Virus genome (UHGV): UHGV-0285842
DNA from: a virus
DNA: 34,986 nucleotides
Direction: 5' to 3' (one strand)
The notes under the pieces are model-generated. The model was not told the origin of the DNA, did not search any database, and saw only the letters and a list, made by a program, of their open reading frames with translations. This document shows, in pieces, positions 3,600-24,440 of this stretch. Each line of letters starts with the position of its first letter. The first letter of the stretch is position 1. The position numbers and the translations under genes were made by a program.

Positions 3600-4598
3600 T
3601 TAAAGAGCCTCTAAAGGGCTTAAATCGAGTTCTAAGTCTTCCGGTGTTAAATCAGCTAACGGTGCATTCATCCACTGCGATAAATCTCGTTCTATGTCTT
3701 CATCACTAATGTAGTTGTTCAGATTGATTGCGTTGGTATCATCAAAATACATTGGCTTAGATGGGTTGGTGTGGATGTATTCATTGATGAATGATTTAAC
3801 ATCTTTCAGCTTGCTAATCGGTAGCGTTTCTGTGAATCCGCTATTCATTACCTTACGTGGGATTTTCTTGCCCTGAATATTCTTTTTAATCCCCATTTCT
3901 AAATCACCAGCTTTCCATCCAATGTTAAACAAATGTGAGCATTCAAAGGTGATTTTCTCGCTGGTGTGCTTCTGGTGTTCTCTTACCCGTTGCATCGGAT
4001 CTTTGCGAGTGGTAATTCCATATTTGAAAAACTTCTCGCCAACACGAATTAGATAAAAGTGCATAGGGCGCTGTGCAAACTTGTTTCTGATAACCTGTTT
4101 TCTACCATTCTGAATTGATTTAAGTACACCCCTAACCAAAGGGCATGTTAACCCGCCTTGTCTGCGGTTATTGTGTAAATCACCTTTCTTGTGAATCTTT
4201 CCGTGGCACTTACAACGAAGAATTAGTTTAGTGTCAACACCCTGATAAGGTTCAGCCAGACCTAACACATCCCACCCTATCGGCTTGTAGAACTTGCGAG
4301 CGTTTTCTAAGTGTTCTTCTTCGGTAAATCTAAACTTCTTCTTAGGCGGTGATACTCTATCTTTGCCAGTAAACTGACCAGTTAGAACATGACTAATACA
4401 TGGCGTTTTAACCTTTCCGTTAACTTCTATGCAAACTTTGGTGTTCTGGAATGGTTTCTTTACAGGAAGCACAAAACCACTGTATAACCATCCATGCACT
4501 TGACAAACTTTAATGATTCTGGTTTCATATTCGACCGGAGGGGTCGCACGTTTGCTTTTTGCGGTAAATTCGATATCCTTTGCTAAAGTAGTATTCAT
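3600..4598 (-). CDS. putative T5orf172 / GIY-YIG-like domain protein with Cys/His cluster (possible nuclease)
   Basis: Start ATG 4598 with GAGGAC Shine-Dalgarno (track ORF extends further upstream without a ribosome-binding site). Motif HFYLIRVGEKFFKYGITTRKDPMQRVREH resembles the T5orf172 signature; Cys/His cluster CKCHGKIHKKGDLHNNRRQGGLTCP upstream of it. Assignment from memory only. Confidence 0.4.
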   Translation of the reverse strand: MNTTLAKDIEFTAKSKRATPPVEYETRIIKVCQVHGWLYSGFVLPVKKPFQNTKVCIEVNGKVKTPCISHVLTGQFTGKDRVSPPKKKFRFTEEEHLENARKFYKPIGWDVLGLAEPYQGVDTKLILRCKCHGKIHKKGDLHNNRRQGGLTCPLVRGVLKSIQNGRKQVIRNKFAQRPMHFYLIRVGEKFFKYGITTRKDPMQRVREHQKHTSEKITFECSHLFNIGWKAGDLEMGIKKNIQGKKIPRKVMNSGFTETLPISKLKDVKSFINEYIHTNPSKPMYFDDTNAINLNNYISDEDIERDLSQWMNAPLADLTPEDLELDLSPLEAL

Positions 4599-4633
4599 AG
4601 TAGTGTCCTCGAAAATAATAAGTTCACTACTAT

Positions 4634-5074
4634 TTATTGAGAAAAATTTGTTGTAATGGTTGAAGACCACGGGCATGAGTAGTAACCACGACCGCCACCG
4701 ATCAAACAAATGGTCGGACGGAAACCAGTAAGATCACAAAATGAATCAGTGTCATGCGCAGGAGAACGATGCTCTGCTTCGTCAGAGAAAATGTTTGCCA
4801 CCGGAGATTCCACTTTAACTTCCGGTGCTTCTTCAACATCTGACTTAACTTCTTCAACCACTGGTTCAACTTCTGGAGATTCTTCTTTTGTTTCTTCAAT
4901 GACGATCTCAGGTTCTTTCATTGCTTCAACCAGAGACGGATCAACTTCGTCGAATACCACTTTATCATCTGCGGTATATTTGTCTATAATGAAAAAATGG
5001 TCAGAAATATAGCTAACGTCGCCAGCATATTCTAACAAAAAAGCGCCCACAAGAGGCGCTTTTGTTTTATCCAT
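4634..5074 (-). CDS. hypothetical acidic Glu/Val/Pro-rich protein; start uncertain
   Basis: ORF in a low-complexity region. Candidate ATG at 5074 overlaps the stop of the M15 gene and would place the 5043-5059 hairpin inside the coding sequence; alternative internal starts exist. Confidence 0.3.
   Translation of the reverse strand: MDKTKAPLVGAFLLEYAGDVSYISDHFFIIDKYTADDKVVFDEVDPSLVEAMKEPEIVIEETKEESPEVEPVVEEVKSDVEEAPEVKVESPVANIFSDEAEHRSPAHDTDSFCDLTGFRPTICLIGGGRGYYSCPWSSTITTNFSQ
5037..5063. terminator. bidirectional hairpin at the end of the late/lysis operon
   Basis: Stem GCGCC (5043-5047) / GGCGC (5055-5059), A-run upstream and T-run downstream; immediately 3' of the M15 gene stop (5067). 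Confidence 0.5.
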
Positions 5075-6671: not shown

Positions 6672-6690
6672 ATATTCACCCCTTTTATTA

Positions 6691-6969
6691 TTATTTTTGT
6701 TTGAGTATGTCGAGAACTTGGTCAAACTTAGCGTCCATCGCAACCACTTTCTTCTCTATACCGTGTAGTGTTTGTTCCATTTGGTAAACACGTTCAGCAA
6801 TCTGAGTATGGTTATTCTGCATCGTCTCAAACTTCTGGTTTAACAATGCGTCGCTGGATTCCAATTTCGACAATCTATTTTCTGTGGCTAATTGATTTCG
6901 GTGAAGTCTCCAAAGCCCACCACAAATTAAGGCGATAACACCGATACCGCCATATATAATTTCAGTCAT
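6691..6969 (-). CDS. membrane protein with N-terminal transmembrane segment and coiled coil (holin- or i-spanin-like)
   Basis: ATG 6969 with GGGGGCG Shine-Dalgarno; transmembrane stretch IIYGGIGVIALICGGLW then heptad-rich periplasmic/cytoplasmic part. Confidence 0.45.
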   Translation of the reverse strand: MTEIIYGGIGVIALICGGLWRLHRNQLATENRLSKLESSDALLNQKFETMQNNHTQIAERVYQMEQTLHGIEKKVVAMDAKFDQVLDILKQK

Positions 6970-7011
6970 TACGCCCCCGATATTTTTATATAATTTAATG
7001 GCAGAATTATT

Positions 7012-7057
7012 TAGATAAAAATAATCCCGCCTAACTCAAAAGAATTAAGCGGGATTA
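7012..7057 (-). terminator. hairpin terminator downstream of the J-like gene
   Basis: Stem TAATCCCGC (7022-7030) / GCGGGATTA (7049-7057), 18-nt loop, U-run on the minus-strand transcript. Confidence 0.5.
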
Positions 7058-7074
7058 ATTATTAGAATTAAATT

Positions 7075-10000
7075 TTAAGAAACAGAAATACCAGTAGCGG
7101 CTTTCTTAGTTACCATTACCGTTAGATCGCTGATATATGCACTTGGGTTATAGTTGTTAACGCCCTTACAGTAAACTTCAAAAGTCATTGTTACTGCCCC
7201 GTGTCCGGCTGGCATGTCAATAACTCCACTGTACATACAGCCAGAAGTTGCAGTGCGATCATATAGAACACCACCATTTTTCTTAACGATTAGTCGGCAA
7301 GTATCCCAATGATCGCTACTTTCGCCACGACGAACAGACCCGTTATGATGAATCGCTGGAATCACTATTTGGCGATCGAATGGATGATCATCTTCGACCC
7401 TTACAGTGATTGCACCATCAGGCCAGTTTGGTTGGCGATGTGGGAAACTCCTACCAACCACTTTCACGAAGTCACCACGCACCTGATTAGCATCAAGCAT
7501 ACCCAAAATGCGGCAACTTGAATTAATCGTTACGTTGTTCATTTCGCCGGAATCAGCCACCAAATGACCACGAATATTAGCGTGTCTAAAATGACAAGTG
7601 CCATCTTTGCCGATATACCATCCATCGTTACCATTCCAGTTATAAGACTGGATATAGTTACCAATTTTAGCATTATCGATAGAGCCATCAATGATATGAC
7701 CTGTTCCGATCTGTGCGTGTTGGATGTGAGCGCCGTTAATCTGGGCTGTGCCGATCTTAGCCGTGGTGATACTAGCATCACTAATCTGGGCTGTGCCAAT
7801 TGCAGCATTACGAATCATCGCATTATCAAGATAAACTTTGTTATCTTCGATGCCAAACGGACAAACTTCTGATCCGTCTTGTGGAGCTACCGCGATTTTA
7901 TCAGCCGTAAAGATGATTCTTGTCGGTTCTGCCGGATCATTGGTTGCGCTCATATGAATACCAGCCACGCGACCATCTGCATTAACTGCCAGATTATATT
8001 TGCTGTTAATGGTTCCCTTCAAAGCATCGATTTTTACATCTGCTTCCTGATTCACACCAGCAATCTTGCCATCCATTTCTACCCGAACTTGATCAATCTT
8101 ACTTGCGCTTGCTGCCTCACTGGTAGCAATTGCTTGTTTCAGGGTAGTAGCGGATGCGCTAACTTCTTTGGTGATATCGCCTTTCAGTTCAGCTTTAACC
8201 TGATCAATCTTAGTTGCGCTGGCTTGCTCACTGGTAGCAATCAGACTCTTGAGAGTATCGGCTGAGGCTTGGACCGTCTGCCCTGTCTCGGTAGTAATCT
8301 GTTTATGCATTGCATCAATCTTAGCATCGGCATTAGCGCCAGCTTGAGCAATAGCATCCGCGATGGTTTCATCTAAGCGATCTTGTAAACCAATCAGGTC
8401 TTCCAGTGCTTCTTTGTCCTGATCGTCCCAGCTAATGGTAGATTTCATTTGCATGAAATACGGTTCAGACCAAACAGCATCATCCATGCCGAAAATATCA
8501 TAGTGAGCACCACGGATATAATAATCACCGTCAGCCAAATCAAAGGAAGTATGACTAACGCTATTGGTAGTCACTGCCCTTGCATCGGAGAAAGTATTAT
8601 CGGTTGCATACTGGATGATTGACCCTGCATAGTCATGTTCTACGTCATCCGCCCAGCTAACAAACGCAGTATTAAAGCCACCACGCGCACTAAAACCTTT
8701 CATCGGCTTATGTTGTGGGTTGATAGCCACTAAACGCGCTGGGGCGCTCTCTGAGTTGTTATAGCCCTTGACTGATACTTCTACCGTCAATTCACGGGAA
8801 AGGCCGTTAAACTGGTTCATATCAAGCGTATAAGTCCATGATTCAGGATCGCGGGTACGGTACTGAATAGACTTACCAGCCTTGTTAGTTACCTTGATAA
8901 TGTATGCTTCAAACAGGTCACTAAACTTGTTAGCTTCACCGTTGATCATCACATCTAATTGTTGCTGATTTTCCCATTCGATAATCAGATCATTGCCTTC
9001 GAAAGTACCAGGCGTGCTACCCTGATTTTTGATTCGAATAACCGGAGTCGGCAATTCATAGGTAACAGTAGGATTCTGGTTAACCAGTTCCACCCATTCG
9101 GAACGAGCAATAATACCGAAAGCACAAACGCGGTAATCGTAGGAGCGATCTTTTGCCAGTGCATTGATATTGAAAATTTGCTGTGAAGTCTGCCCCAGCT
9201 TAATCCAGTTAGGCGATCCACTTACACGGTAATCAATCTGGAAACCGTAGCGGTTAAAATCTTCCGGTGCATCCCATGTCAAAGTAACGTTTTTACCGTG
9301 GATTGTCTCACCAGTTGCCTTAATTCTGAAATTAGTAGGCTTCTGTACTGTCATTGAATCCGGTAAACCAGTAGGTCTATTGTCTGGAGTCGCCGCATAG
9401 TTCAGGTCAGTATAAACCTGAGAATTATATTCTGTAGCGGTGATAGTCATCATCCCAGCAATACCAGAATCAATCGAGCGATCAATTGCAGTAATACGCC
9501 ATAAGGAATTATTCAGCTTCAATTCATCATATGTTACGCTGATAACGTCCCAAACTTCGGCAGTGAATGCGTCAGTAGTCATAAAGCTGATAACCTGAGT
9601 GATACGAGATTTATTTCGTTCTACACTCGCTAGTTTATCAATCTGGGCTTTAGACTTAACAAAACGATATTCAATATCTTTAGCGATAATTCGACCATCT
9701 TGACGAATAGTAGCATCGTTTTCAGCATCAGCCGGATAACGTAGCATTTGCTCTGAATAGTCGATTGATGGTTCTTGATACATCGCGTTAATGGTATTGA
9801 AATAACCGTTAGTGCCACCTGTTTTCAGTGATACCTTACCCATCATGATATTGTCTTCATTGAAGGTATGCTTAACAATATCAGGAGCATCCAGTTTCAG
9901 CGTAATACGTCCAAAGGATTCGAACATCACCCCGCCGAAAGTCTGCATAAGGCTAGTTAAGTTCTCTTTAAAGCTGGCGTTCGGATCACATGCACCGTTG

Positions 10001-15753: not shown

Positions 15754-16224
15754 TTAGACTTTCTGGAAAACAGCTTGTTTAACCGGAGCACCATCTACTA
15801 CAAAGGTGAAGGTACGGCCTACTACAGCATCCTCACCACCGGTCATGGTAGTTTTAGACAGGAAGCCGTTATAAGCGATATGTACACCAGATTTTTTCGT
15901 AGCATCGATGTAGTAAGCAATTTTAAGCTGTACGCGCTTACCGTCTTCGGTTGCTTTAATCAGTTTTTCGTGTACTTCGTTACCAGGCATGTAGTTGATC
16001 GAAAGTTCGATATCCGGTACAGACATACGACCAACCAGCTTACGGTTATACGGACCACCGAAGTTAGGAACATCGATAGTAGAACGTTCTACACCAGTTT
16101 CCGGGAAAGCCGCACATTCTGGAATTTCCAGATAGCTTTCACTGTCAAGATCGGTGTTAGTTACTTCTTCATGCAGAAACAGACCAACGAGGCCACCAGA
16201 AAAAATATCAAATTTAGTAGTCAT
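15754..16224 (-). CDS. major tail tube protein (156 aa)
   Basis: Position immediately upstream of the chaperone pair, size and beta-rich composition; AAGGA Shine-Dalgarno; followed by a strong terminator as is common for abundant structural genes. Confidence 0.55.
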   Translation of the reverse strand: MTTKFDIFSGGLVGLFLHEEVTNTDLDSESYLEIPECAAFPETGVERSTIDVPNFGGPYNRKLVGRMSVPDIELSINYMPGNEVHEKLIKATEDGKRVQLKIAYYIDATKKSGVHIAYNGFLSKTTMTGGEDAVVGRTFTFVVDGAPVKQAVFQKV

Positions 16225-16278
16225 TATTCTTTTCCTTCTATTTTAAACAATAGGGCACATACCCGTAATTCTATTTAT

Positions 16279-16581
16279 TTAGCGGTTGCTCAAACGTCTA
16301 TAACGAAGATGAGCGATCCCCCTATTTGTGCTAACGGTAATTACCGCCCCTTGCGGTGCAATACAAGAATGAATCTGTCCCCAATCATGACCCTTATGGC
16401 TTCCAGAAACACACAAACCATGAATAAGCAATTCAGAGTCACCACCGCCACCACCGGAAGAATGAGCACAGAATGAAATAGTCCCGAAAGCGTCGGCTGT
16501 CCAACCGTTAGGAATATCAAACCATCCCTGATTTGCTTTACCCGCCCTATTCCCCAAAGCGCCATCTACCCAAAATGCCAT
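16279..16581 (-). CDS. small Gly-rich protein, paralog 3 of a tandem triplet (100 aa)
   Basis: AGGAGAA Shine-Dalgarno; start overlaps the stop of paralog 2; shares M-x-x-W, FDIPNGW, GL, WG and C-terminal aromatic/basic motifs with the two upstream genes. Confidence 0.6.
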   Translation of the reverse strand: MAFWVDGALGNRAGKANQGWFDIPNGWTADAFGTISFCAHSSGGGGGDSELLIHGLCVSGSHKGHDWGQIHSCIAPQGAVITVSTNRGIAHLRYRRLSNR

Positions 16582-16886
16582 TAGTGCATTCTCCTGAATT
16601 TAAAATAATGCAAACTACCTTTACCCAATGTAAAGCTAACGGTAGCACCAGCGCCAACTAAAGAACTAGCGCCCCAACTCCCAGCATCACCAGCATGATG
16701 ACCTGATTCAATCAATCCATTTACAGCCAATTCAGAATCAAGATCACCAGCACCGTTAATGGCTTCCATATGAGCAAAAACAATTCCGCATGAATCAGTA
16801 ACCCAGCCGTTGGGGATATCAAAATATCCACCATTAGCCCAAATACTAATAGCGTTTGACATTCTTTGATTTATCCATCCAGCCAT
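16581..16886 (-). CDS. small Gly-rich protein, paralog 2 of a tandem triplet (101 aa)
   Basis: GGAG Shine-Dalgarno before ATG 16886; conserved FDIPNGW block. Confidence 0.6.
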   Translation of the reverse strand: MAGWINQRMSNAISIWANGGYFDIPNGWVTDSCGIVFAHMEAINGAGDLDSELAVNGLIESGHHAGDAGSWGASSLVGAGATVSFTLGKGSLHYFKFRRMH

Positions 16887-16888
16887 AA

Positions 16889-17185
16889 TTAAAACTCCAT
16901 GAATTTAAAATATTCAACACCACCTTCACCCCCTAAACCAAAGGAGACGGTGCAGCCAGCAGGAACAAACGAATTTATAGTAGATCCCCAATTGGTCCCA
17001 CCACGACGACGAGCAACGGTCAAACCATCTACGTTAATATGTGCATCAGACCACCCACCACCAGCATTATGACGCATTACAGCGACACCAGCACGAGCAG
17101 TACCATAGCCGTTAGGAATATCAAATACATGCCATTTTAAAGCATCGATTTTAGTATTAATTTCACTACTTACCCAATATCCCAT
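16889..17185 (-). CDS. small Gly-rich protein, paralog 1 of a tandem triplet (98 aa)
   Basis: AAGGA Shine-Dalgarno before ATG 17185; conserved FDIPNGY block. Confidence 0.6.
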   Translation of the reverse strand: MGYWVSSEINTKIDALKWHVFDIPNGYGTARAGVAVMRHNAGGGWSDAHINVDGLTVARRRGGTNWGSTINSFVPAGCTVSFGLGGEGGVEYFKFMEF

Positions 17186-17223
17186 ATAAGAATCCTTAGC
17201 GGAGATTTCTCCCCGCTTTCCAA

Positions 17224-20200
17224 TTACCCTAATTTAGCTTCAATTGCAGCAAGACGTTCACGAAGAAGTTTATTTTCTTCGCTCATTTCTTGGACCGCTT
17301 TAATTAAAAGCGCGTTCACTGCGGAGTTTGAAATTGTTAAAATTTCTTCTGGGTTATCAAGACCACCAATTTTTGCGGTTTTAACAGCTTCCGGTAATAC
17401 CTCTTGTAAATCCTGTGCGATAATACCAATCTCATGACCTATAACTTCTCGGTCATTAAGAGATTTAACTTTATCGTAGGTTTTAACTTTGAGTTTATTT
17501 ACCTTATCCACCGCATTTTCTTCGTAATCTTCAACATTAATTTTCAGACGACCATCGGAACGAATATAAACATCGTTAAAGTTACCATTACCAGGAGAAT
17601 AGAAAGTACCATCATGATGGAACTCGAATACAGCTTGAGGATGACCAGCCGCTGGCGATGCCTCCGCAGATCCAACACGAATAATAGCTTGCCCCCAATT
17701 TTGAGGAACACGACGCATACCAAAATCGACGGCAGTTGTATACCCTTGATTGGTGATTAAACTTCTTCCTTTAATAATTGGATAATAGCTATCTGGTCCA
17801 ACATAGCCATGATCGACGAATATTGGAGCTTCTAATCCCCATTGATCGCCCCAACCTCCAGATTGGCTAGCAGTCCAACGTTCACCATGAACATAGAATC
17901 GAACGTTATTGACATGAGTCATTTCGACACCTTTTGGACTTAGCGCGATATCACCCGCGTTTGTAATATTGATAGCAGCATTAGTAGCATAGCTATAGAA
18001 CGCTAATCCATTATCAGCACCACCTTTACCGATATACCAGTTGTTATTATCAGCACAAGTACCCAGCAAATATATAGACGAATCACCCGTTTCGGCATTC
18101 ATGACGATTGCGTCAGAACCACGATTAACTTTAAGTTTCCCGAAGAAGGTGTTTTTAATGGTATTATCACCCAATCGTTCAAATTCTGCTAAAAATCCTT
18201 TTGAGTCACGAAGACTTAAAACGTTATTTCGACCTGTATTGCTTGCACCCCAATGGACGAGTTCCATATAGTCCATAGATTGACGAGAACCAGCTTTAAA
18301 GAACAGGTTGTCTTCGAGACGAGTGCTACCATCAATTCCAAGATGCAAACAACGAGCAGTTTCAGTGCCACCTAAATATAATCCACCGTCAGCAAAATTA
18401 TAGCTGAATGGTCTACGAGTATTCCACGGTCCAAATGAATCACCGAGATCTGTGGTAAGAATATGGAAGCCAACGCCATCATTTCTAAAAATTAAGCCAT
18501 AATTGCCACCTTTAACAGCCAAACGAGCATTTTCAGATAATGCAACTTCGCTATTCATTACAATTTTCTGGCCTTTACCGCCAGTAATATGCAATTCACC
18601 ATCTTCAATCAGGTTTATAGAGTTTTGACCGTTATCGTTCCACCAAATAAAATCTTTGGTCGTCAAATCACCAAAACCAAACCAACCATTACGAACATCT
18701 TGACCAGTGCGATAATCCATAAAATTAAAATGGCTTGATTCGTTTGGTCCTCGACGAATATCAATACCAGCATTACCAGTACCACCATCCAATGTTAATT
18801 TCTTGATATGTAACCCGGATGTTGCTGTCAGCAATAATTCCTGATTTGTATCTTCGTATCCAGTAGCAAGACGATATGCGTTATCATCAACTGTCTCATG
18901 CCAGATTGTAGCTGGTGCACAACTACGGAAGCGACGCAACATCTTTTTAGCATTTGTCGGTTGTTCGTTTAAATGCTCAATATCATATTGGCCTTGATGA
19001 TTGCCAGCAAAATTTAACGTCCCACGGTTGCTAAAGTTATTGAACGATGAAATGTTAAGAGCATCAAAAATTTCGTCTGCAACAGGTTTTTCACCACCCA
19101 GATATTCAGGAGTATCCAACAGGTTTAAAGAAACACCACCGGAAGAAACTTGATATTCTGCTAAAACAAATCCTGTATGTGCACCGTAGTAAGCGTAAAG
19201 ATCGTAATTGTCGCCATCGGTTGGAATAGCGCAAAAATGTTGTTCATAATGCCAAATAGTATAATACGCATTGAATACAACACCTTTCGGGCTATTGTTG
19301 CCGCATCGAATCACCAATTCGATAATATTGGCTTGTCCATTATGTCCTACGTTATAACCGTTACCACCAACCAAACGGATCTTAGCCGTGCGACCGTGTT
19401 GTTGTGGCATTGTCAAAGTGCCTAGTTTAAACCAACCACCCTCGATACCAAAATTAAGCGTCTTCTGGAACAGTCGGTCAATTTCTGCTTTCGAATATGC
19501 GCCAATTTCAGCCGGAGTAGGTTTATCGCCTTCATGATACATGCGGTGAGAATATGACAAATTACCTAATTCATCATAGCCGTATGTTCTTACAGTAGCA
19601 TGTGGATTAGACCCATAAGTGAACTCGAAGCCACGAGCATGATTAACACCAGATGGATGCGGAACATGCAAGATCATTGCAATATGACCCGCCAGGTCAT
19701 TCATGCGGAATGCACCAAAGTAATCAAGATTACGCGCATTTGGATCATCAAAATAGTTTGCGGTCTTAGACAGCAAATAACCATCAGTATAAGTGTTTAC
19801 GTGTTTTTTGATGTACTTGCCATCAGCAGATCCATCGGCTGCATCAATACGGCTTTCTAAACGTGCCAGTTCAGAATCAGTGTAAGACTTGTTATTGTCA
19901 ACTTTGCTATGAATTGCTGTATTTTTGGCTTCAACATCACGGGTTAATGCTGCGACGTTATCCGCTGCCTCTTGCTTATTGGCTGCAATCACACCAGTAA
20001 GGTTATTGTAGGTGTCAGTTAACTGATTTTCCGCATAGACTTTATTTGCTGCGATAGTGCGGTCAGTTTCTGCCTTAATCAAATCAACCTTGTCATTGAT
20101 TGCTTTGTCATTGCTTGCGATGGTTGCATCGGTGCGGGATTTAATATCATCAACTTTTTTATTGATGCGGGTGTCCAGTTCCTGAGTTGCTACAGCAGCC

Positions 20201-20631
20201 GCATTTTTATTAGCGTTGATGGTATCCGACAATTCAGCTTTAACACCAGCAAGGTCGGAAGCAGCTTTATTTTTATTGGCCTCGATTGTCGCGTCGGTTT
20301 CGCGTTTAATTACATCAACTTTATTGTTAATTTCTGCGTGATTTGCTGCGATGGTTGCATCAGTAGTTTGTTTAATTTCATCTACTTTAGCGTGAATATT
20401 GCGGTCATTTACTGCAATTGTGCTATCTAGTTCTTGTTTGTTAGCATCAACTTTAGATTCTAGTGCCGCGTGAGTTTCAGGAGAAACAGAGATTTGAACT
20501 ACTTCATGATCTCGGTCTTTGGTAAAAATAACATGGTCTTTAAGGTTGATTGCTACCTCACCGACCTGTAATTGTTCCGGCGTTGGTTTTTTGCCAGAAA
20601 CATTAGTTCGTTTAAATTGGATTGATTGCAT
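17224..20631 (-). CDS. side tail fibre (1135 aa) with C-terminal peptidase S74-type intramolecular chaperone domain
   Basis: N-terminal repeated KVDxIKxxTDATIxAN units, central beta-helix-like Gly/Asn-rich region, C-terminal ~110 aa (SDGRLKINVEDY...LLRERLAAIEAKLG) resembling autoproteolytic chaperone domains of phage fibres and endosialidases. GAGGTGA Shine-Dalgarno before ATG 20631. Confidence 0.8.
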   Translation of the reverse strand: MQSIQFKRTNVSGKKPTPEQLQVGEVAINLKDHVIFTKDRDHEVVQISVSPETHAALESKVDANKQELDSTIAVNDRNIHAKVDEIKQTTDATIAANHAEINNKVDVIKRETDATIEANKNKAASDLAGVKAELSDTINANKNAAAVATQELDTRINKKVDDIKSRTDATIASNDKAINDKVDLIKAETDRTIAANKVYAENQLTDTYNNLTGVIAANKQEAADNVAALTRDVEAKNTAIHSKVDNNKSYTDSELARLESRIDAADGSADGKYIKKHVNTYTDGYLLSKTANYFDDPNARNLDYFGAFRMNDLAGHIAMILHVPHPSGVNHARGFEFTYGSNPHATVRTYGYDELGNLSYSHRMYHEGDKPTPAEIGAYSKAEIDRLFQKTLNFGIEGGWFKLGTLTMPQQHGRTAKIRLVGGNGYNVGHNGQANIIELVIRCGNNSPKGVVFNAYYTIWHYEQHFCAIPTDGDNYDLYAYYGAHTGFVLAEYQVSSGGVSLNLLDTPEYLGGEKPVADEIFDALNISSFNNFSNRGTLNFAGNHQGQYDIEHLNEQPTNAKKMLRRFRSCAPATIWHETVDDNAYRLATGYEDTNQELLLTATSGLHIKKLTLDGGTGNAGIDIRRGPNESSHFNFMDYRTGQDVRNGWFGFGDLTTKDFIWWNDNGQNSINLIEDGELHITGGKGQKIVMNSEVALSENARLAVKGGNYGLIFRNDGVGFHILTTDLGDSFGPWNTRRPFSYNFADGGLYLGGTETARCLHLGIDGSTRLEDNLFFKAGSRQSMDYMELVHWGASNTGRNNVLSLRDSKGFLAEFERLGDNTIKNTFFGKLKVNRGSDAIVMNAETGDSSIYLLGTCADNNNWYIGKGGADNGLAFYSYATNAAINITNAGDIALSPKGVEMTHVNNVRFYVHGERWTASQSGGWGDQWGLEAPIFVDHGYVGPDSYYPIIKGRSLITNQGYTTAVDFGMRRVPQNWGQAIIRVGSAEASPAAGHPQAVFEFHHDGTFYSPGNGNFNDVYIRSDGRLKINVEDYEENAVDKVNKLKVKTYDKVKSLNDREVIGHEIGIIAQDLQEVLPEAVKTAKIGGLDNPEEILTISNSAVNALLIKAVQEMSEENKLLRERLAAIEAKLG
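20040..20420. repeat. imperfect tandem repeats (~48 bp units) in the fibre N-terminal shaft
   Basis: Recurring GCGATGGTTGCATC...TTTAAT-TCATC-ACTTT blocks, at least four copies, encoding the repeated KVDxIK-TDATI peptide motif. Confidence 0.5.
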
Positions 20632-20644
20632 CTAATCACCTCAC

Positions 20645-20677
20645 ATAAAACAGGAATAAGGGAGGCGTTAACCTCCC
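20645..20677 (-). terminator. hairpin terminator between the 277-aa gene and the fibre gene
   Basis: Stem GGGAGG (20660-20665) / CCTCCC (20672-20677); U-rich tract on the minus-strand transcript. Confidence 0.45.
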
Positions 20678-20702
20678 CGTCATGTTTTATTTAGAGAAGC
20701 AA

Positions 20703-21536
20703 TCAGTATTCCCCGAAATCGATCCGGTCATGGATAGAAACGGCTTCAATCTCGGCTGGTGTCGGTTTTTCTTCTGTGGAATACAATTTCACCCATCCAG
20801 AATTACCGTCTTTCTGGACTGTGCGAACTCGTAAACGTGGTGCACCAGAAGCGGTGCAAGTTAATTGCCATCCACCATCTTCATTAGGTTGAACGTGAAT
20901 TAGTGAAGTATCAGCACTAAATGGGTTAGATGCGCTCGATCCCTGATAGGTTACGAAACGGTTTCCGGCTAATGCTTCGCTATCAATCGGACCCGTGAAT
21001 GGATTTACACCAGCACCCAAACCAAAATCACCCTGACGTAAGATCCGGCCTTCGGTAGCAATACCGCGATCTAGAATCCCGCCATCAGGTTCTAATTTAA
21101 ACTCGATTGTAGTAACTTTGTTATCACCGGATTTTGTTTTATGTGACGAGACATAAGCGTCAAAAATGACGTAGTAACCTGTGTTAGCAGCACTGTAACC
21201 AGAGTTCACAACATAGAACATACGAAAGCGTAAAGGAGTTTTATCATTCACCGCTTTCATCAACATGTCTTGATGTTCGTCATCCAGAACACGGTTTACT
21301 ACTAACGTAGTTGATTCAAGTTTACGATAGCCAGCAAGTTTACCCGTAGCGTCCTGATCATACTCTTCTAACGTCTGGATCTCTGTGGATTCGGTTATCG
21401 TCGGGAATGCTGCGATGTTCTCGATAGGACTAAATGCAGGATCGAAAAAGTCCGGCTGGTTATCCACCATAGTAGACACGGAGACTTCAACATGCGACCC
21501 CGTGAAAATGTCTAAGTTATCTTGTGTAATATTCAT
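20703..21536 (-). CDS. virion structural protein (277 aa), possibly tail- or fibre-associated
   Basis: AAGGGGTAATA before ATG 21536; beta-rich; C-terminal EEKPTPAEIEAVS echoes KPTPAEIGAYS and KKPTPEQLQVGEVA in the adjacent fibre. Confidence 0.4.
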   Translation of the reverse strand: MNITQDNLDIFTGSHVEVSVSTMVDNQPDFFDPAFSPIENIAAFPTITESTEIQTLEEYDQDATGKLAGYRKLESTTLVVNRVLDDEHQDMLMKAVNDKTPLRFRMFYVVNSGYSAANTGYYVIFDAYVSSHKTKSGDNKVTTIEFKLEPDGGILDRGIATEGRILRQGDFGLGAGVNPFTGPIDSEALAGNRFVTYQGSSASNPFSADTSLIHVQPNEDGGWQLTCTASGAPRLRVRTVQKDGNSGWVKLYSTEEKPTPAEIEAVSIHDRIDFGEY

Positions 21537-21545
21537 TATTACCCC

Positions 21546-21968
21546 TTAAAAACGCGCTAGATAAGAAAATTTAAGGCTAAGTGTCCCAACGATACCCCCA
21601 TCACTAGAATCATCGTCATAATCGGTATTAGAAGCTACTGGAGTGATATCTGAAATAGAGAAGCCCAAATCTTTAAATCGTGGGTTATCTGGCTGAATCT
21701 GGATTATCTGGCAAATACCCTCATGAATTTTGGTTTCATGATTCTGAGAATACAACTGCATTTCGATAACGCATTCAGCTTGCATTGCATTACCACCACG
21801 GACCCTATTGTAAGTCTCATTCATTCCGGTAATCCAACAAACCACATCATCACTAAAGCCTTGCTGAGTTTGTTCTACGTTTAAAGCCAGACCTAAATCT
21901 TGTTCGATAATATCCTGCAAGGCGCGTTTGATTTTCAGTCTAGGCATATTATTAACGGTAGCGAGCAT
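21546..21968 (-). CDS. head-tail joining / tail completion protein (about 140 aa)
   Basis: ATG 21968 with GGGGG Shine-Dalgarno (track ORF start at 22016 lies inside the upstream gene); position after capsid and connector genes. Confidence 0.4.
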   Translation of the reverse strand: MLATVNNMPRLKIKRALQDIIEQDLGLALNVEQTQQGFSDDVVCWITGMNETYNRVRGGNAMQAECVIEMQLYSQNHETKIHEGICQIIQIQPDNPRFKDLGFSISDITPVASNTDYDDDSSDGGIVGTLSLKFSYLARF

Positions 21969-22242
21969 GTGTACCCCCTGCACGAGCAATAAAGCAATCA
22001 GTTGTATTGTCACCATTGCGCTTAACGTATTGAACTTTGAAACGCTGATTTTCTACAGTGACAATATCACCCTGCTTTAAGTCTCCCTCACGACAAAATA
22101 GAAATTCTGTCTCTGTCATTACCCCTGATTCGTCGGTAGTAGTAATTTCATGATAAGCACGAATTGATTTACCACCTTCCACCGAAAATACAGGAGCACT
22201 TCGGAACATTCTTGATAATTGTGATTCTGATAATTTGAACAT
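21952..22242 (-). CDS. head completion / connector protein (96 aa)
   Basis: AAGGGGGTAACT before ATG 22242; small protein directly downstream of the capsid gene. Confidence 0.45.
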   Translation of the reverse strand: MFKLSESQLSRMFRSAPVFSVEGGKSIRAYHEITTTDESGVMTETEFLFCREGDLKQGDIVTVENQRFKVQYVKRNGDNTTDCFIARAGGTHARYR

Positions 22243-22433: not shown

Positions 22434-24440
22434 TCATTCAGCGGAGATGTGAAGAACTTTCAGAGCTTCCGGCTGAACTACGGTGAAGTCCAGGTCTACC
22501 CAGATACGCGGAACGATAGCAGACTGTGCACGGTAGGTAGTGTCATCCATATCCAGTTCCAGACCACCCCATTCGCCGATCATGATACCGGAGAAGTCAC
22601 CCAGAACGATGTGATCTGCCGGGATAACACCAGAAGTAACTACATCGTAACCAGCCAGTTTGCCGTTTTCGATGATATAACCGGAAACGCCGTTATCTTT
22701 CAGGGTAGATTCCAGTTCAGCAGCAGTTGCACCGCTCATTGCAAACTTGATGGACTGTGCCGGAACGCCAGCGTCGGTCAGTGCTGCAATTTCTTTCAGG
22801 AAGTCTTTGTAGCTAAAAGCGGCTTTCTTAGTAACGCGACCACCGTCTACCAGTTGCTTAACCAGACCTTTCGGACCGCGAGTATTGTCTTTGTCAGACA
22901 GAATCAGTTGTTCCAGTTTGATCCGGACAGCTTTGTTAATGTGATCAGTGATCAGAGTAGCAATATTCGGAACAGTTTTCAGAGACTGACGGCTGATCGG
23001 GTTGCCACCAGCAAACGTCTTAGGAGCCATTTTCACGTTTGCAAATTCAGCTTTGCTTTCCGGTGCAGCACCGTTTTCATCAACGAAACCGAAAGCATCT
23101 ACGCTGGAAGCAGTCATTTTCGGTACAGCAATCGGAGCATTCAGACCAGACAGAACAGTCACACCGAGGCGGCCTAAAACACTCTGAGGCAACAGCATTT
23201 CAACATAGGATTCGGTCAGCAGTTTTTCGTCGGTGATATCAGTCAGAGTAGCTTTGGTGTTACCATCAGCAGCAGCACGCAGAGCAGCAGCCGGAACGAA
23301 TACAGAGCCACCGCGAGCAGCACGACCACGCTGCATTGCAGCACCAGCAGCCATAGCGGAATATTCAGCTTCGTTAGCACCCAGAGCAGCACCATCTACC
23401 AGAGAGCGAATTACGTTGTTCAGGTCAAAAGTTTTTTCCATTTTAGAGTCCTTAATTTGTTGTTCGTTGTTACGTTGAGCAGTAGCGATTTTATTTAGTG
23501 CCTTAGTGCGGAATGCTTCCGGCGTCATATCTTTAACTGCCAATGCGCGTTCTAATTCTTCGTCGTTAATATTTAGCTCGCGTGCAATTTCGCGAATTTC
23601 TAATTCGTCTTCTTCGGAACGTTCAGCCACTTCTTCGATTTTTTCTTCTTCAACCGGAGCAGCTTCACGTTCTTCTTTTACTTCTTCTGCTTCCCGAACA
23701 GTTGAACTATCATCATCAACACTTTCAGGATGTTCAGCGTCTTTTCCGTCTTCGAGATTTTCATCTTCTTTATTCTCTTCAACTTGGCGCTCTTGAGTTT
23801 CTTCAACTTCCGGTTCTTTATTTTCTTCTACCGGAGTTTCTTCAACCTGAGCGGCTTCTTGTTCTTCTTTGATTTCTTCGATTTGTTCTTTAGTCATATC
23901 GCGTTTAGCCTCCAAATTAACTGTGATAGTATTTAGAGAGCGATTTAAACCGACAGAATCATCGGCAGGGACCGTCACAAATGAAATTTCAAAAGGTGCC
24001 CACTTAGTAACAATCAATTGCCCTTTGGCGTAATCGATTTGATATTCTTTAATGTCATAACCGACAGAAATTTTTTCCATCGTACCTTCAATGACTTTAT
24101 TGCGAATATCATTAGCCATAGTTCCATGCTTAGAGAATTTAACCAGAGCACGACCTACGTTATCCGCATCGATTCGAGCGTTACAAACGACACCAATGTG
24201 ATTATCGAAATTATGATTAAACAGCAACGGAGCGTTATTATTCAGACGAGACAGATCAACCGCTTCCGGTGTATGTACCAGAATTTCATCTAATACCACC
24301 ATTTCTTGATTTTGCTCATCCCAGAATTGGCGCTGATAAGGCTGTTCACTGGAGAAAGCAATTTCAAATTCGTATTGATCGTTCTGCCCTTCGTTAATAA
24401 CTCCACCGTAACCGTTAAGATCGCGGCGAAATTTAAGCAT
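22434..24440 (-). CDS. fused prohead protease (HK97 gp4 / S78-like), acidic scaffold segment and HK97-fold major capsid protein (668 aa)
   Basis: N-terminal ~170 aa with protease-like pattern (EFEIAFSS...LLFNHNFDNHIGVV...ISVGYDIKEY), central Glu/Lys coiled-coil low-complexity region, C-terminal ~330 aa capsid-like (SGVIPADHIVLGDFSGIMIGEWGGLELD...). AAGGTGA before ATG 24440. Confidence 0.75.
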   Translation of the reverse strand: MLKFRRDLNGYGGVINEGQNDQYEFEIAFSSEQPYQRQFWDEQNQEMVVLDEILVHTPEAVDLSRLNNNAPLLFNHNFDNHIGVVCNARIDADNVGRALVKFSKHGTMANDIRNKVIEGTMEKISVGYDIKEYQIDYAKGQLIVTKWAPFEISFVTVPADDSVGLNRSLNTITVNLEAKRDMTKEQIEEIKEEQEAAQVEETPVEENKEPEVEETQERQVEENKEDENLEDGKDAEHPESVDDDSSTVREAEEVKEEREAAPVEEEKIEEVAERSEEDELEIREIARELNINDEELERALAVKDMTPEAFRTKALNKIATAQRNNEQQIKDSKMEKTFDLNNVIRSLVDGAALGANEAEYSAMAAGAAMQRGRAARGGSVFVPAAALRAAADGNTKATLTDITDEKLLTESYVEMLLPQSVLGRLGVTVLSGLNAPIAVPKMTASSVDAFGFVDENGAAPESKAEFANVKMAPKTFAGGNPISRQSLKTVPNIATLITDHINKAVRIKLEQLILSDKDNTRGPKGLVKQLVDGGRVTKKAAFSYKDFLKEIAALTDAGVPAQSIKFAMSGATAAELESTLKDNGVSGYIIENGKLAGYDVVTSGVIPADHIVLGDFSGIMIGEWGGLELDMDDTTYRAQSAIVPRIWVDLDFTVVQPEALKVLHISAE

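Follow-up and report, generated by a model that had tools for sequence, protein, structure and literature searches.

The window analysed here, the 34,986 nucleotides (nt) of UHGV virus genome UHGV-0285842, corresponds to a prophage of Escherichia coli of ~36 kb, in which the genes for a protein of 277 amino acids (aa), a 1135-aa fibre and three small paralogs lie between the head-completion genes and the tail tube gene. We consider it probable that a lineage of temperate siphophages has in these genes its native side-fibre module, composed of an anchor paralogous to the tail tube protein, a joint like that between gp36 and gp37 in the long tail fibres of T4, and an exchanged distal cassette. 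The joint, the fibre body and the chaperone at its end are known parts, but we found no description of their combination with a tube-fold anchor, nor of its wide distribution among uncultured phages. Our literature search returned nothing relevant on tube-like fibre anchors or second tube proteins.

Results

A tail tube paralog precedes the fibre

Residues 11-154 of the 277-aa protein match phrog_158 of the PHROGs database ('major tail protein', E 1.9e-10), and its N-terminal domain has the tail-tube (Hcp-like) fold. The protein is nevertheless not encoded at the position of the tube gene: the slot directly upstream of the tail assembly chaperone genes, the first of which matches phrog_344, is taken by a 156-aa paralog with a stronger match to phrog_158 (E 3.2e-20) and weak Pfam matches to tail tube proteins of the lambda type. 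The two proteins are 20% identical (pairwise E 3e-4). A metagenomic ortholog of the 156-aa protein has a C-terminal Ig-like domain, as is often the case in major tube proteins, which supports the 156-aa protein, and not the 277-aa one, as the bulk subunit of the tube. The 277-aa protein is thus a paralog of the tail tube protein and not the tube protein itself. Its homologs form 82 clusters in Enterobacterales, nearly all with 275-281 aa.

The tube-fold domain is followed by a Gly-rich linker, a 'knob' module of the kind found in fibre shafts and a C-terminal connector (Table 1). The linker has low confidence in the structure model, and an alignment of 18 sequences revealed many invariant residues in and next to it (G163, G169, D170, G172, G174, G176, G182, D185, G191, N192 and R193). 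The knob is 31% identical to residues 300-380 of the fibre over ~80 residues (pairwise E 3e-4), and it is repeated 3-8 times within long fibre proteins in our search of representative proteins. No Pfam family matched the C-terminal domain, and PDB sequence searches with the whole protein and with a profile of its C-terminus gave only non-significant matches (the collar spike protein of phage XM1 at E 0.27-0.36, the C-terminus of gp34 at E 0.63). The motif KPTPAEI is present in both proteins (residue 257 in the 277-aa protein, 370 in the fibre) and is a genuine similarity: when the 277-aa sequence was shuffled 20000 times, any 7-mer in common with the fibre appeared in only 14 cases. An earlier note on this DNA, made from its letters alone, had noticed the motif and taken it as a sign of cassette acquisition; it is instead a part of the fibre module that ends in the gp36-type connector, not a recombination scar. 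A read-through fusion of the 277-aa protein with the fibre is ruled out by in-frame stops after the TGA.

Counterparts of the gp36-gp37 joint

The last 28 residues of the 277-aa protein (KLYSTEEKPTPAEIEAVSIHDRIDFGEY) align end to end with the end of gp36 of Krischvirus G37-3 (...ELYHEGHKPTPAEVGAVPLNAVIDFGTF), with 14 of the 28 positions identical (pairwise E 9e-6). All seven anchor homologs examined have the ending (I/V)D(F/L)Gxx, and T4 gp36 terminates in ...SVQDFGYY. The N-terminal ~50 residues of the fibre are 42% identical to residues 4-53 of T4 gp37 (pairwise E 6e-16), and such a gp37-type head is kept in every fibre that follows an anchor. In T4, the N-terminal region of gp37 is bound by trimeric gp36 to give the distal half-fibre (PMC3004832). 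The gp36-like C-terminus of one protein and the gp37-like N-terminus of the other are therefore counterparts of the two sides of a known joint, and the fibre head would dock on the connector. PDB searches with the fibre N-terminus and with the Krischvirus gp36 retrieved no solved structure for either part.

The pairing recurs across loci. A product ending in (I/V)D(F/L)Gxx stands directly before one starting with xQFKR(T/S)...GE..IN..D..I(F/Y) once per locus in ten loci of relatives or T-even phages, among them the window and those of Salmonella, Providencia, Edwardsiella, a metagenomic contig, the record of phage DCP80 (see below), two Krischvirus phages and T4. A Proteus prophage has the pairing two times, its fibre being divided between a 198-aa protein (head, coiled coil and DFGTF tail) and a 675-aa protein (head and gp37-type body). 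Krischvirus G37-3, like the window, has a terminator-like element between the two genes, in its case an annotated terminator between gp36 and gp37.

Anchor and fibre are one protein in most relatives

We examined 13 related loci, from five enterobacterial genera (E. coli, Salmonella, Providencia, Edwardsiella and Proteus) and metagenomic contigs, and in all 13 the slot between the ~140-aa gene and the tail tube gene is filled in the same order. The 140-aa gene itself keeps its place and its length (132-141 aa) in all relatives. We searched 1.84 billion representative proteins with a profile of the anchor family and obtained 308 matches at E <=1e-3, 148 of them at E <=1e-10, and we parsed the domain arrangement of the best 149 representatives. 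The tube-like domain and the knob stand at the N-terminus of a protein of 400-1563 aa in 106 of these, and make up a protein of less than 400 aa in only 6. There were also 10 tube-only proteins (nine of 151-252 aa and a 942-aa outlier), 23 that had knob repeats alone, for the most part within long fibres of 605-1898 aa and including two short fragments, and 4 of other kinds. Of the 112 proteins that combine tube-like domain and knob, 14 end in a gp36-type tail and 30 contain, close to the C-terminus, the chaperone-like motif S(D/N)x(R/K)xK. Three fused genes whose surroundings we inspected all stand in the order typical of the lineage, in the same slot, flanked by a ~135-aa gene and by the tube gene.

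These fusions, found in more distant relatives, and their common slot indicate that the tube-like domain and the fibre are a single chain in most of the lineage; in the enterobacterial branch they would have been split and rejoined non-covalently. Given the fused relatives and the gp37-type head on the fibre, the 277-aa protein is most likely the anchor of the fibre in the virion, as judged from the sequences.

Cultured phages contribute little to this family. When we searched 50,697 phage records by tblastn with the anchor and with the N-terminus of a fused relative, Escherichia phage DCP80 (PQ671644.1) was the sole match. The record has 141 kb and carries a T4-like classification (Gaprivervirus), yet its positions 1-25000 hold a complete structural module of siphophage type from the window's lineage, with terminase, portal, protease-capsid, a 698-aa anchor with tube domain, a 745-aa fibre, tube and tape measure. 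Its appearance is that of a chimeric assembly or else of an unusual hybrid.

Only the distal part of the fibre is exchanged

The earlier note had proposed that a terminator-bounded fibre cassette was acquired horizontally and inserted into a lambda-like gene order. It had correctly placed the 277-aa and 1135-aa open reading frames (ORFs), which are on the minus strand, between head-completion and tail-tube genes; the block lies between the stopper-like and ~140-aa genes on one side and the tail tube gene on the other. The same slot, with the same order of anchor and fibre, is however occupied in every relative examined, and the block is therefore not a recent insertion. A uniform order with the 277-aa protein as the tail tube was what the note had named as the sign of an ancestral arrangement; the uniform order and the tube fold are there, but the protein is a paralog of the tube. 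Nor is the block bounded by terminators. Of the coding strand's good terminator-like sites, one (22299-22278) lies behind the capsid gene, two genes upstream of the block, and the other (15745-15726) behind the tube gene and thus also beyond the block. The sole hairpin at or inside the block, at 20678-20659, is weak and has a poor T tail. The GC content is 0.40-0.44 throughout, and the block is not set apart by its base composition.

The claim of horizontal acquisition holds for a part of the block. The segment 16263-17578 is 95.3% identical in DNA to Krischvirus G37-3 (blastn), and 16918-19768 is 89.2% identical to Krischvirus KFS-EC (blastn), rising to 97.1% over 16918-19035 (megablast). By contrast, the region 19801-21275 is similar only to a Salmonella prophage, at 68% identity, and the anchor gene and the initial ~280 fibre codons have no counterpart in T-even phages and match prophage relatives only. 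The upstream breakpoint thus falls at ~19768-19800, around fibre residues 280-288, at the start of the gp37-type body, and the downstream one is intergenic, before the tube gene. Three distal cassettes are found in E. coli behind one and the same combination of anchor and fibre N-terminus: chaperone and triplet (window and UTAK-14), chaperone and true gp38 adhesin (ETEC4085), and chaperone with no accessory gene (EC416). On these sequence comparisons, only the distal part of the fibre, together with the triplet, was exchanged with T4-like phages, and the mosaic is narrower than had been proposed.

A gp37-type fibre with an S74 chaperone

The 1135-aa protein matches phrog_1699 ('long tail fiber distal subunit', E 2e-127), with a Pfam Gp34_trimer domain at residues 644-744. 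It is an accessory, or 'side', fibre, as the earlier note had read it, because the window also encodes a separate central fibre of the lambda J type, with 1248 aa and the J C-terminal receptor-binding domain (E 1.6e-34). Scans of anchor and fibre with Pfam and PHROG revealed neither the N-terminal collar of Stf nor a p132-like collar domain. The ORF map and the family scans gave no homologs of gp34 or gp35, and the tail genes are of siphophage type.

Between head and shaft lies a spacer of ~210 residues with repeats of the form NxKVDxIKxxTDATIAAN and a low-level apolipoprotein-like match. It is homologous to the separate 198-aa protein of Proteus, its DNA is similar only to that of the Salmonella prophage, and by these comparisons it appears specific to this prophage clade. 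The fibre body is colinear with Krischvirus gp37 from about residue 60 of the latter.

The C-terminal intramolecular chaperone predicted in the earlier note stands. Pfam Peptidase_S74 (PF13884) matches residues 1025-1084 with E 5e-14 and 52.8 bits, against a cutoff of 22, and the motif SDGRLK begins at residue 1025, which leaves a C-terminal piece of 111 aa. This piece matches S16 gp37 in PDB 6f45 (E 1.7e-4). Its Ser and the Lys five residues on (S-D-x-R-x-K; S1025 and K1030 in DVYIR^SDGRLKI) form the dyad whose catalytic role was reportedly established in work on the K1F endosialidase. Cleavage is predicted between R1024 and S1025. An identical stretch, DVYIR^SDGRLKI, has been aligned to the experimentally known autocleavage site of S16 gp37, where cleavage bares the surface on which gp38 docks (PMC7917993).

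The subtype of the chaperone goes with the accessory genes: SDGRLKINVEDYEE is found with the triplet, SDDRLKINKEALEN or SDGRLKINRQRVEN with gp38, and SDERLKINKEELEE where there is no accessory gene. The tip just upstream of the chaperone occurs in either type, and this combination points to the conserved NDVYIR^SD.RLKIN junction as a possible hotspot of recombination.

Three small paralogs at the gp38 position

The three ORFs of ~100 aa that follow the fibre gene are true paralogs, as the earlier note had stated, with 35% pairwise identity, an invariant W4 and a FDIPNG motif; they lie at 16279-17185, outside the interval 17224-21536 to which the note had assigned them. They occupy the place of the gp38 adhesin gene of sister prophages, which carry true gp38 genes, and of T-even phages. 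None of the three matches a PHROG, Pfam (including GP38 and Gp38_N) or PADLOC family, and a word-indexed homolog search returned 10 clusters only. Paralog 2 is predicted to be compact, with an N-terminal helix and a C1q/TNF-like jelly roll for which members of the C1q/TNF group are the best matches; folds of this kind are predicted for the triplet as a whole.

Of the 50,697 phage records, only those of the Straboviridae (T4-like) phages G37-3, G2248 and UPWr_E1 contain these three genes. In the Salmonella prophage each paralog scores 224-354 against its positional counterpart and 78-141 against the other two, and paralog 1 has positional orthologs in both this prophage and Krischvirus G37-3. 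The positional orthology indicates that the triplication is old and that the copies are not redundant. In KFS-EC, the single 107-aa gene after gp37 (3945-4268) is a fusion of residues 1-88 of paralog 1 with a fragment of paralog 3, a deletion product of recombination between tandem paralogs.

Genomic setting

The structural genes are all on the minus strand (Table 1). Downstream of the tube gene there are two genes at the position of the tail assembly chaperones, an 809-aa tape measure, a distal tail protein, a hub, a DUF6950 protein and, last, the J-like central fibre. The lineage is one of temperate siphophages with a gpA-type terminase, a fused protease-capsid gene and a tail tip resembling those of gene transfer agents and lambda. 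Related DNA was found in 59 of 5426 complete E. coli genomes, 22 of which cover at least 80% of a 9.6-kb query around the module. In UTAK-14 the same element lies inside ycdX, with a large serine recombinase.

Table 1. Position of the side-fibre module, its predicted parts and neighbouring genes in the window
Feature	Position	Strand	Basis or remark
Large terminase, gpA-type	26578-28482	-	family scans
Head-tail joining protein, 165 aa	next after terminase	-	
Portal	after 165-aa head-tail joining protein	-	
Fused protease-capsid gene	22434-24440	-	after portal
FII/stopper-like protein, 96 aa	between capsid and 140-aa genes	-	
140-aa gene, upstream boundary of the slot	21546-21968	-	position and size kept in relatives
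Putative anchor gene, 277 aa	20703-21536	-	ORF, phrog_158
Anchor: tail-tube-fold domain, residues 1-162	21051-21536	-	
Anchor: Gly-rich linker (GDFGxGAG...GNR), residues 163-192	20961-21050	-	
Anchor: fibre-shaft knob module, residues 193-249	20790-20960	-	
Anchor: gp36-type C-terminal connector KLYSTEEKPTPAEIEAVSIHDRIDFGEY, residues 250-277	20706-20789	-	
GC-rich hairpin between anchor and fibre genes, weak terminator or attenuator	20659-20678	-	
Side-fibre gene, 1135 aa	17224-20631	-	ORF, phrog_1699, Pfam
Fibre: gp37-type head, predicted docking site for anchor C-terminus, residues 1-55	20467-20631	-	
Fibre: repetitive spacer, probably coiled-coil, residues 56-265	19837-20466	-	
Fibre: gp37-type shaft and tip, residues 266-1024	17560-19836	-	
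Fibre: S74 intramolecular chaperone, residues 1025-1135	17227-17559	-	
Triplet paralog 1, 98 aa	16889-17185	-	
Triplet paralog 2, 101 aa	16581-16886	-	
Triplet paralog 3, 100 aa	16279-16581	-	
Major tail tube gene (canonical), 156 aa, closing the slot downstream	15754-16224	-	phrog_158
Mosaic segment common to virulent Krischvirus (T4-like) phages	16263-19768	.	blastn/megablast

The 140-aa protein, a candidate tail terminator or completion protein, has no PDB, Pfam or PHROG match and no similarity to the terminator of phage R4C. Its longest ORF has 156 aa (ATG at 22016) and shares 65 nt (21952-22016) with the end of the stopper-like gene; the UTAK-14 ortholog in RefSeq is annotated from the start that gives 140 aa, with an overlap of only 17 nt. 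The fused gene encodes prohead protease (S78) and major capsid protein in one 668-aa ORF, with a highly acidic, Glu/Lys-rich linker of ~170 residues (~180-350) between them. Its closest cultured relatives, at ~30% identity, are the marine and alpha-proteobacterial phages R4C, phiHAP-1, VP882 and RcCronus.

Elsewhere in the window, 31481-32698 is a 1.2-kb AT-rich stretch (GC 0.34-0.36) with no ORF of at least 60 aa. At 32036-32148 it includes a 15-nt direct repeat, TTATAGTGTAGGTTT, in at least four copies with spacings of 22, 44 and 13 nt, which resemble an operator array or the iterons at an origin of replication. The window as a whole gave no tRNA and no match to an Rfam family. The cargo beside the serine recombinase varies: it is a 369-aa endonuclease-like protein (phrog_681) on the minus strand at 3600-4709 in the window and a DEAD/DEAH helicase on the plus strand at the corresponding place of UTAK-14 (6677-8167), and neither fits a PADLOC defence model. 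Several E. coli carriers have IS421, ISVsa5, IS3, IS903B or a GIY-YIG nuclease gene within the 9.6-kb region, and some of their annotations of this region include 'cytochrome'.

Discussion

Domain homologies, synteny, fusions in relatives and mosaic boundaries could be read directly, and they fit a simple scheme. The N-terminal domain of the anchor would seat it in or on the tail tube, and its C-terminal part would be a short piece of shaft ending in a connector of the T-even gp36 type. The gp37-type head of the fibre would dock on this connector, re-creating the gp36-gp37 joint of the T4 long tail fibre in a siphophage, and would be followed by the clade-specific, probably coiled-coil spacer and then by the gp37-type shaft and tip. 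The S74 chaperone is predicted to drive trimer folding and then to cut itself off between R1024 and S1025, which would bare the tip. The three C1q/TNF-like paralogs may bind this tip as an accessory adhesin, which is the weakest step of the scheme. The anchor and the N-terminal third of the fibre would be inherited vertically, and shaft, tip, chaperone and accessory genes would be swapped as a cassette with virulent T4-like phages, leading to changes in host range. Beyond the docking and the role of the triplet, we infer the position of an anchor ring in the virion and the number of fibres that each virion would bear.

Several observations weigh against this scheme. The confidence of the anchor model (predicted local distance difference test, pLDDT) is below 50 over most of residues 163-277. 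The similarity to gp36 is limited to ~28 residues and does not extend to overall homology, including the N-terminal part that joins gp35; relative to T4 gp36 only the terminal DFG-aromatic motif matches, and BLASTP is not significant. A hexameric ring of the tube type has no simple mapping onto trimeric fibres (six arms would hold two fibres). The lack of a family match for the 140-aa neighbour leaves room for a terminator-like role of the anchor. Finally, the isolated lytic phage KFS-EC keeps only the remnant hybrid of paralogs 1 and 3, and the tip of the window is of the type of KFS-EC and ETEC4085, which is paired with gp38, and not of the type associated with the triplet in G37-3 and Salmonella. 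The triplet may thus be dispensable, or non-cognate here.

The last two points bear on a different reading of the triplet, in which the three paralogs would be cargo linked to the cassette, with roles in exclusion, immunity or assembly, neither part of the virion nor involved in receptor binding. We take this as a serious possibility, somewhat less likely than not. Besides the remnant in KFS-EC and the mismatched tip, it can draw on the absence of any accessory gene in EC416 and in the Providencia relative, and on the absence of Pfam, PHROG or PADLOC matches. It accounts less well for genes that sit exactly in the gp38 adhesin's place, have a predicted fold typical of fibre tips, always come as three, and keep their positional orthology across Salmonella, E. 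coli and Krischvirus. By inspection, their N-termini also lack a signal peptide or lipobox.

A second alternative concerns location, and is a variant of the scheme above. The anchor could be the tail terminator or a ring just below it, so that the fibres would leave from the neck or collar and fold down along the tail, on the model of the whiskers of T4 or the collar spikes of Vibrio phage XM1. We regard this placement as somewhat unlikely. It agrees with the gene order (stopper, 140-aa gene, anchor, fibre, tube), given that clusters of the lambda type run from head-proximal genes to the tip, and the knob has the weak, non-significant resemblance to the XM1 collar spike protein. As a rule of thumb, tails measure ~0.15 nm per residue of tape measure; the 809-aa protein would then specify a tail of ~120 nm, most of which the 1024-aa fibre could span.

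It is quite improbable that the 277-aa protein is simply a subunit of the tube, major or co-polymerising, with a C-terminal domain that merely decorates the surface, in the manner of the Ig domain of lambda gpV or of SPP1 gp17.1*, and a fibre that attaches elsewhere, for example at the tail tip. This would suit the tail-tube fold, the match to phrog_158 and the hairpin after the anchor gene, similar to the terminators after the capsid and tube genes, and flexible C-terminal domains are common in tube proteins (Sf11 gp24 has 238 aa, of which only 7-161 are resolved). But a separate canonical tube gene lies beside the chaperone genes, and an ortholog of its product has the usual decoration of Ig type. 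Moreover, the tube-like domain of most relatives heads a fibre of 400-1563 aa, often with a chaperone domain, which is an ill fit for a subunit in ~180 copies, and the C-terminus is a gp36 connector followed by a gene that begins with its gp37 partner. The recent insertion of a foreign cassette of 277-aa protein, fibre and triplet into a lambda-like phage, behind its head-completion genes and ahead of its tail genes, is very improbable: the position is unusual relative to lambda and the distal 3.5 kb is 89-97% identical to Krischvirus phages, but the slot is occupied across genera in 13 of 13 loci, the anchor gene and fibre codons 1 to ~280 match prophage relatives only, and the block has neither a compositional break nor bounding terminators.

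The native module that we favour combines traits of several known systems. With the distal half-fibre of T4 and other T-even phages it has in common the gp37 head and shaft (the latter up to 97% identical in DNA to Krischvirus), a chaperone and cleavage site of the S16/fPS type, the gp38-position slot, the gp36 connector, here on the anchor, and a hairpin or terminator between the two genes. Unlike these phages, the window encodes a temperate siphophage and has no gp34, gp35, knee or contractile baseplate; the N-terminal part of gp36 is replaced by a domain of tail-tube fold, and a spacer of ~210 residues stands between head and shaft. The chaperone resembles those of K1F endosialidase, T5 pb1 and S16 gp37 in passing the Pfam threshold, in its Ser-x4-Lys, its C-terminal location and its length of ~111 aa, and we detected no difference from them. 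The triplet, with its predicted compact jelly roll, may resemble the C1q A/B/C heterotrimer, C1q-like fibre tips and BclA and, like C1q, consists of three tandem paralogous genes.

Among siphophages, the Stf of Ur-lambda and pb1 of T5 are also non-essential accessory fibres beside a central binder of the J or pb5 type, with distal parts related to T-even gp37; T5 pb1 also carries an S74 chaperone. The difference is in the attachment. The side fibres of lambda and T5 are held by a 12-subunit collar around the tube, at its junction with the distal tail protein (PMC12617516), whereas the anchor of the window has the fold of a tube subunit, and its fibre genes stand ahead of the tube gene and not after the tip genes. 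Lambda gpV, SPP1 gp17.1* and Sf11 gp24 likewise join an N-terminal tube fold of ~155 residues to a flexible peripheral domain. In the window, however, the extra domain is a fibre-shaft module with a connector, in relatives a whole fibre, and the protein coexists with a separate canonical tube protein.

One may push the scheme further, to an uncultured lineage of temperate siphophages in which a dedicated ring of the tube paralog, built into the tube and not wrapped around it as a collar, bears the fibres. The enterobacterial fibre would have been split off and re-attached through the gp36-gp37 joint, into which distal fibres of T4 type could plug directly, and its chaperone-cleaved tip would be capped by a heterotrimer of the three paralogs. 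We think that this fuller version is unlikely as a whole. It includes the speculation that each subunit of the triplet contributes one tryptophan prong, as against three in the monomeric gp38, the gp38 of a sister prophage having three N-terminal tryptophans. Such tryptophans have been described as 'prongs' in the gp38 of S16 (PMC7917993).

If the anchor works as we suggest, the duplication and extension of a tube subunit would be a third solution for anchoring the side fibres of siphophages, besides the collars of lambda and T5. It would give a meaning to a large and largely unannotated family: with clustering at 50% identity, there are at least 148 clusters at E <=1e-10, and their members, mostly named 'hypothetical protein' at NCBI, can now be annotated as tube-domain fibre anchors. 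The triplet may represent an alternative to the gp38 adhesins. The gp36-gp37 joint, for its part, appears to be a plug-and-socket that works outside myophages too. A portable joint of this kind would explain why receptor-binding cassettes, 89-97% identical in DNA, can pass between virulent T4-like phages and a temperate prophage, and it bears on the prediction of host range and on the engineering of fibres.

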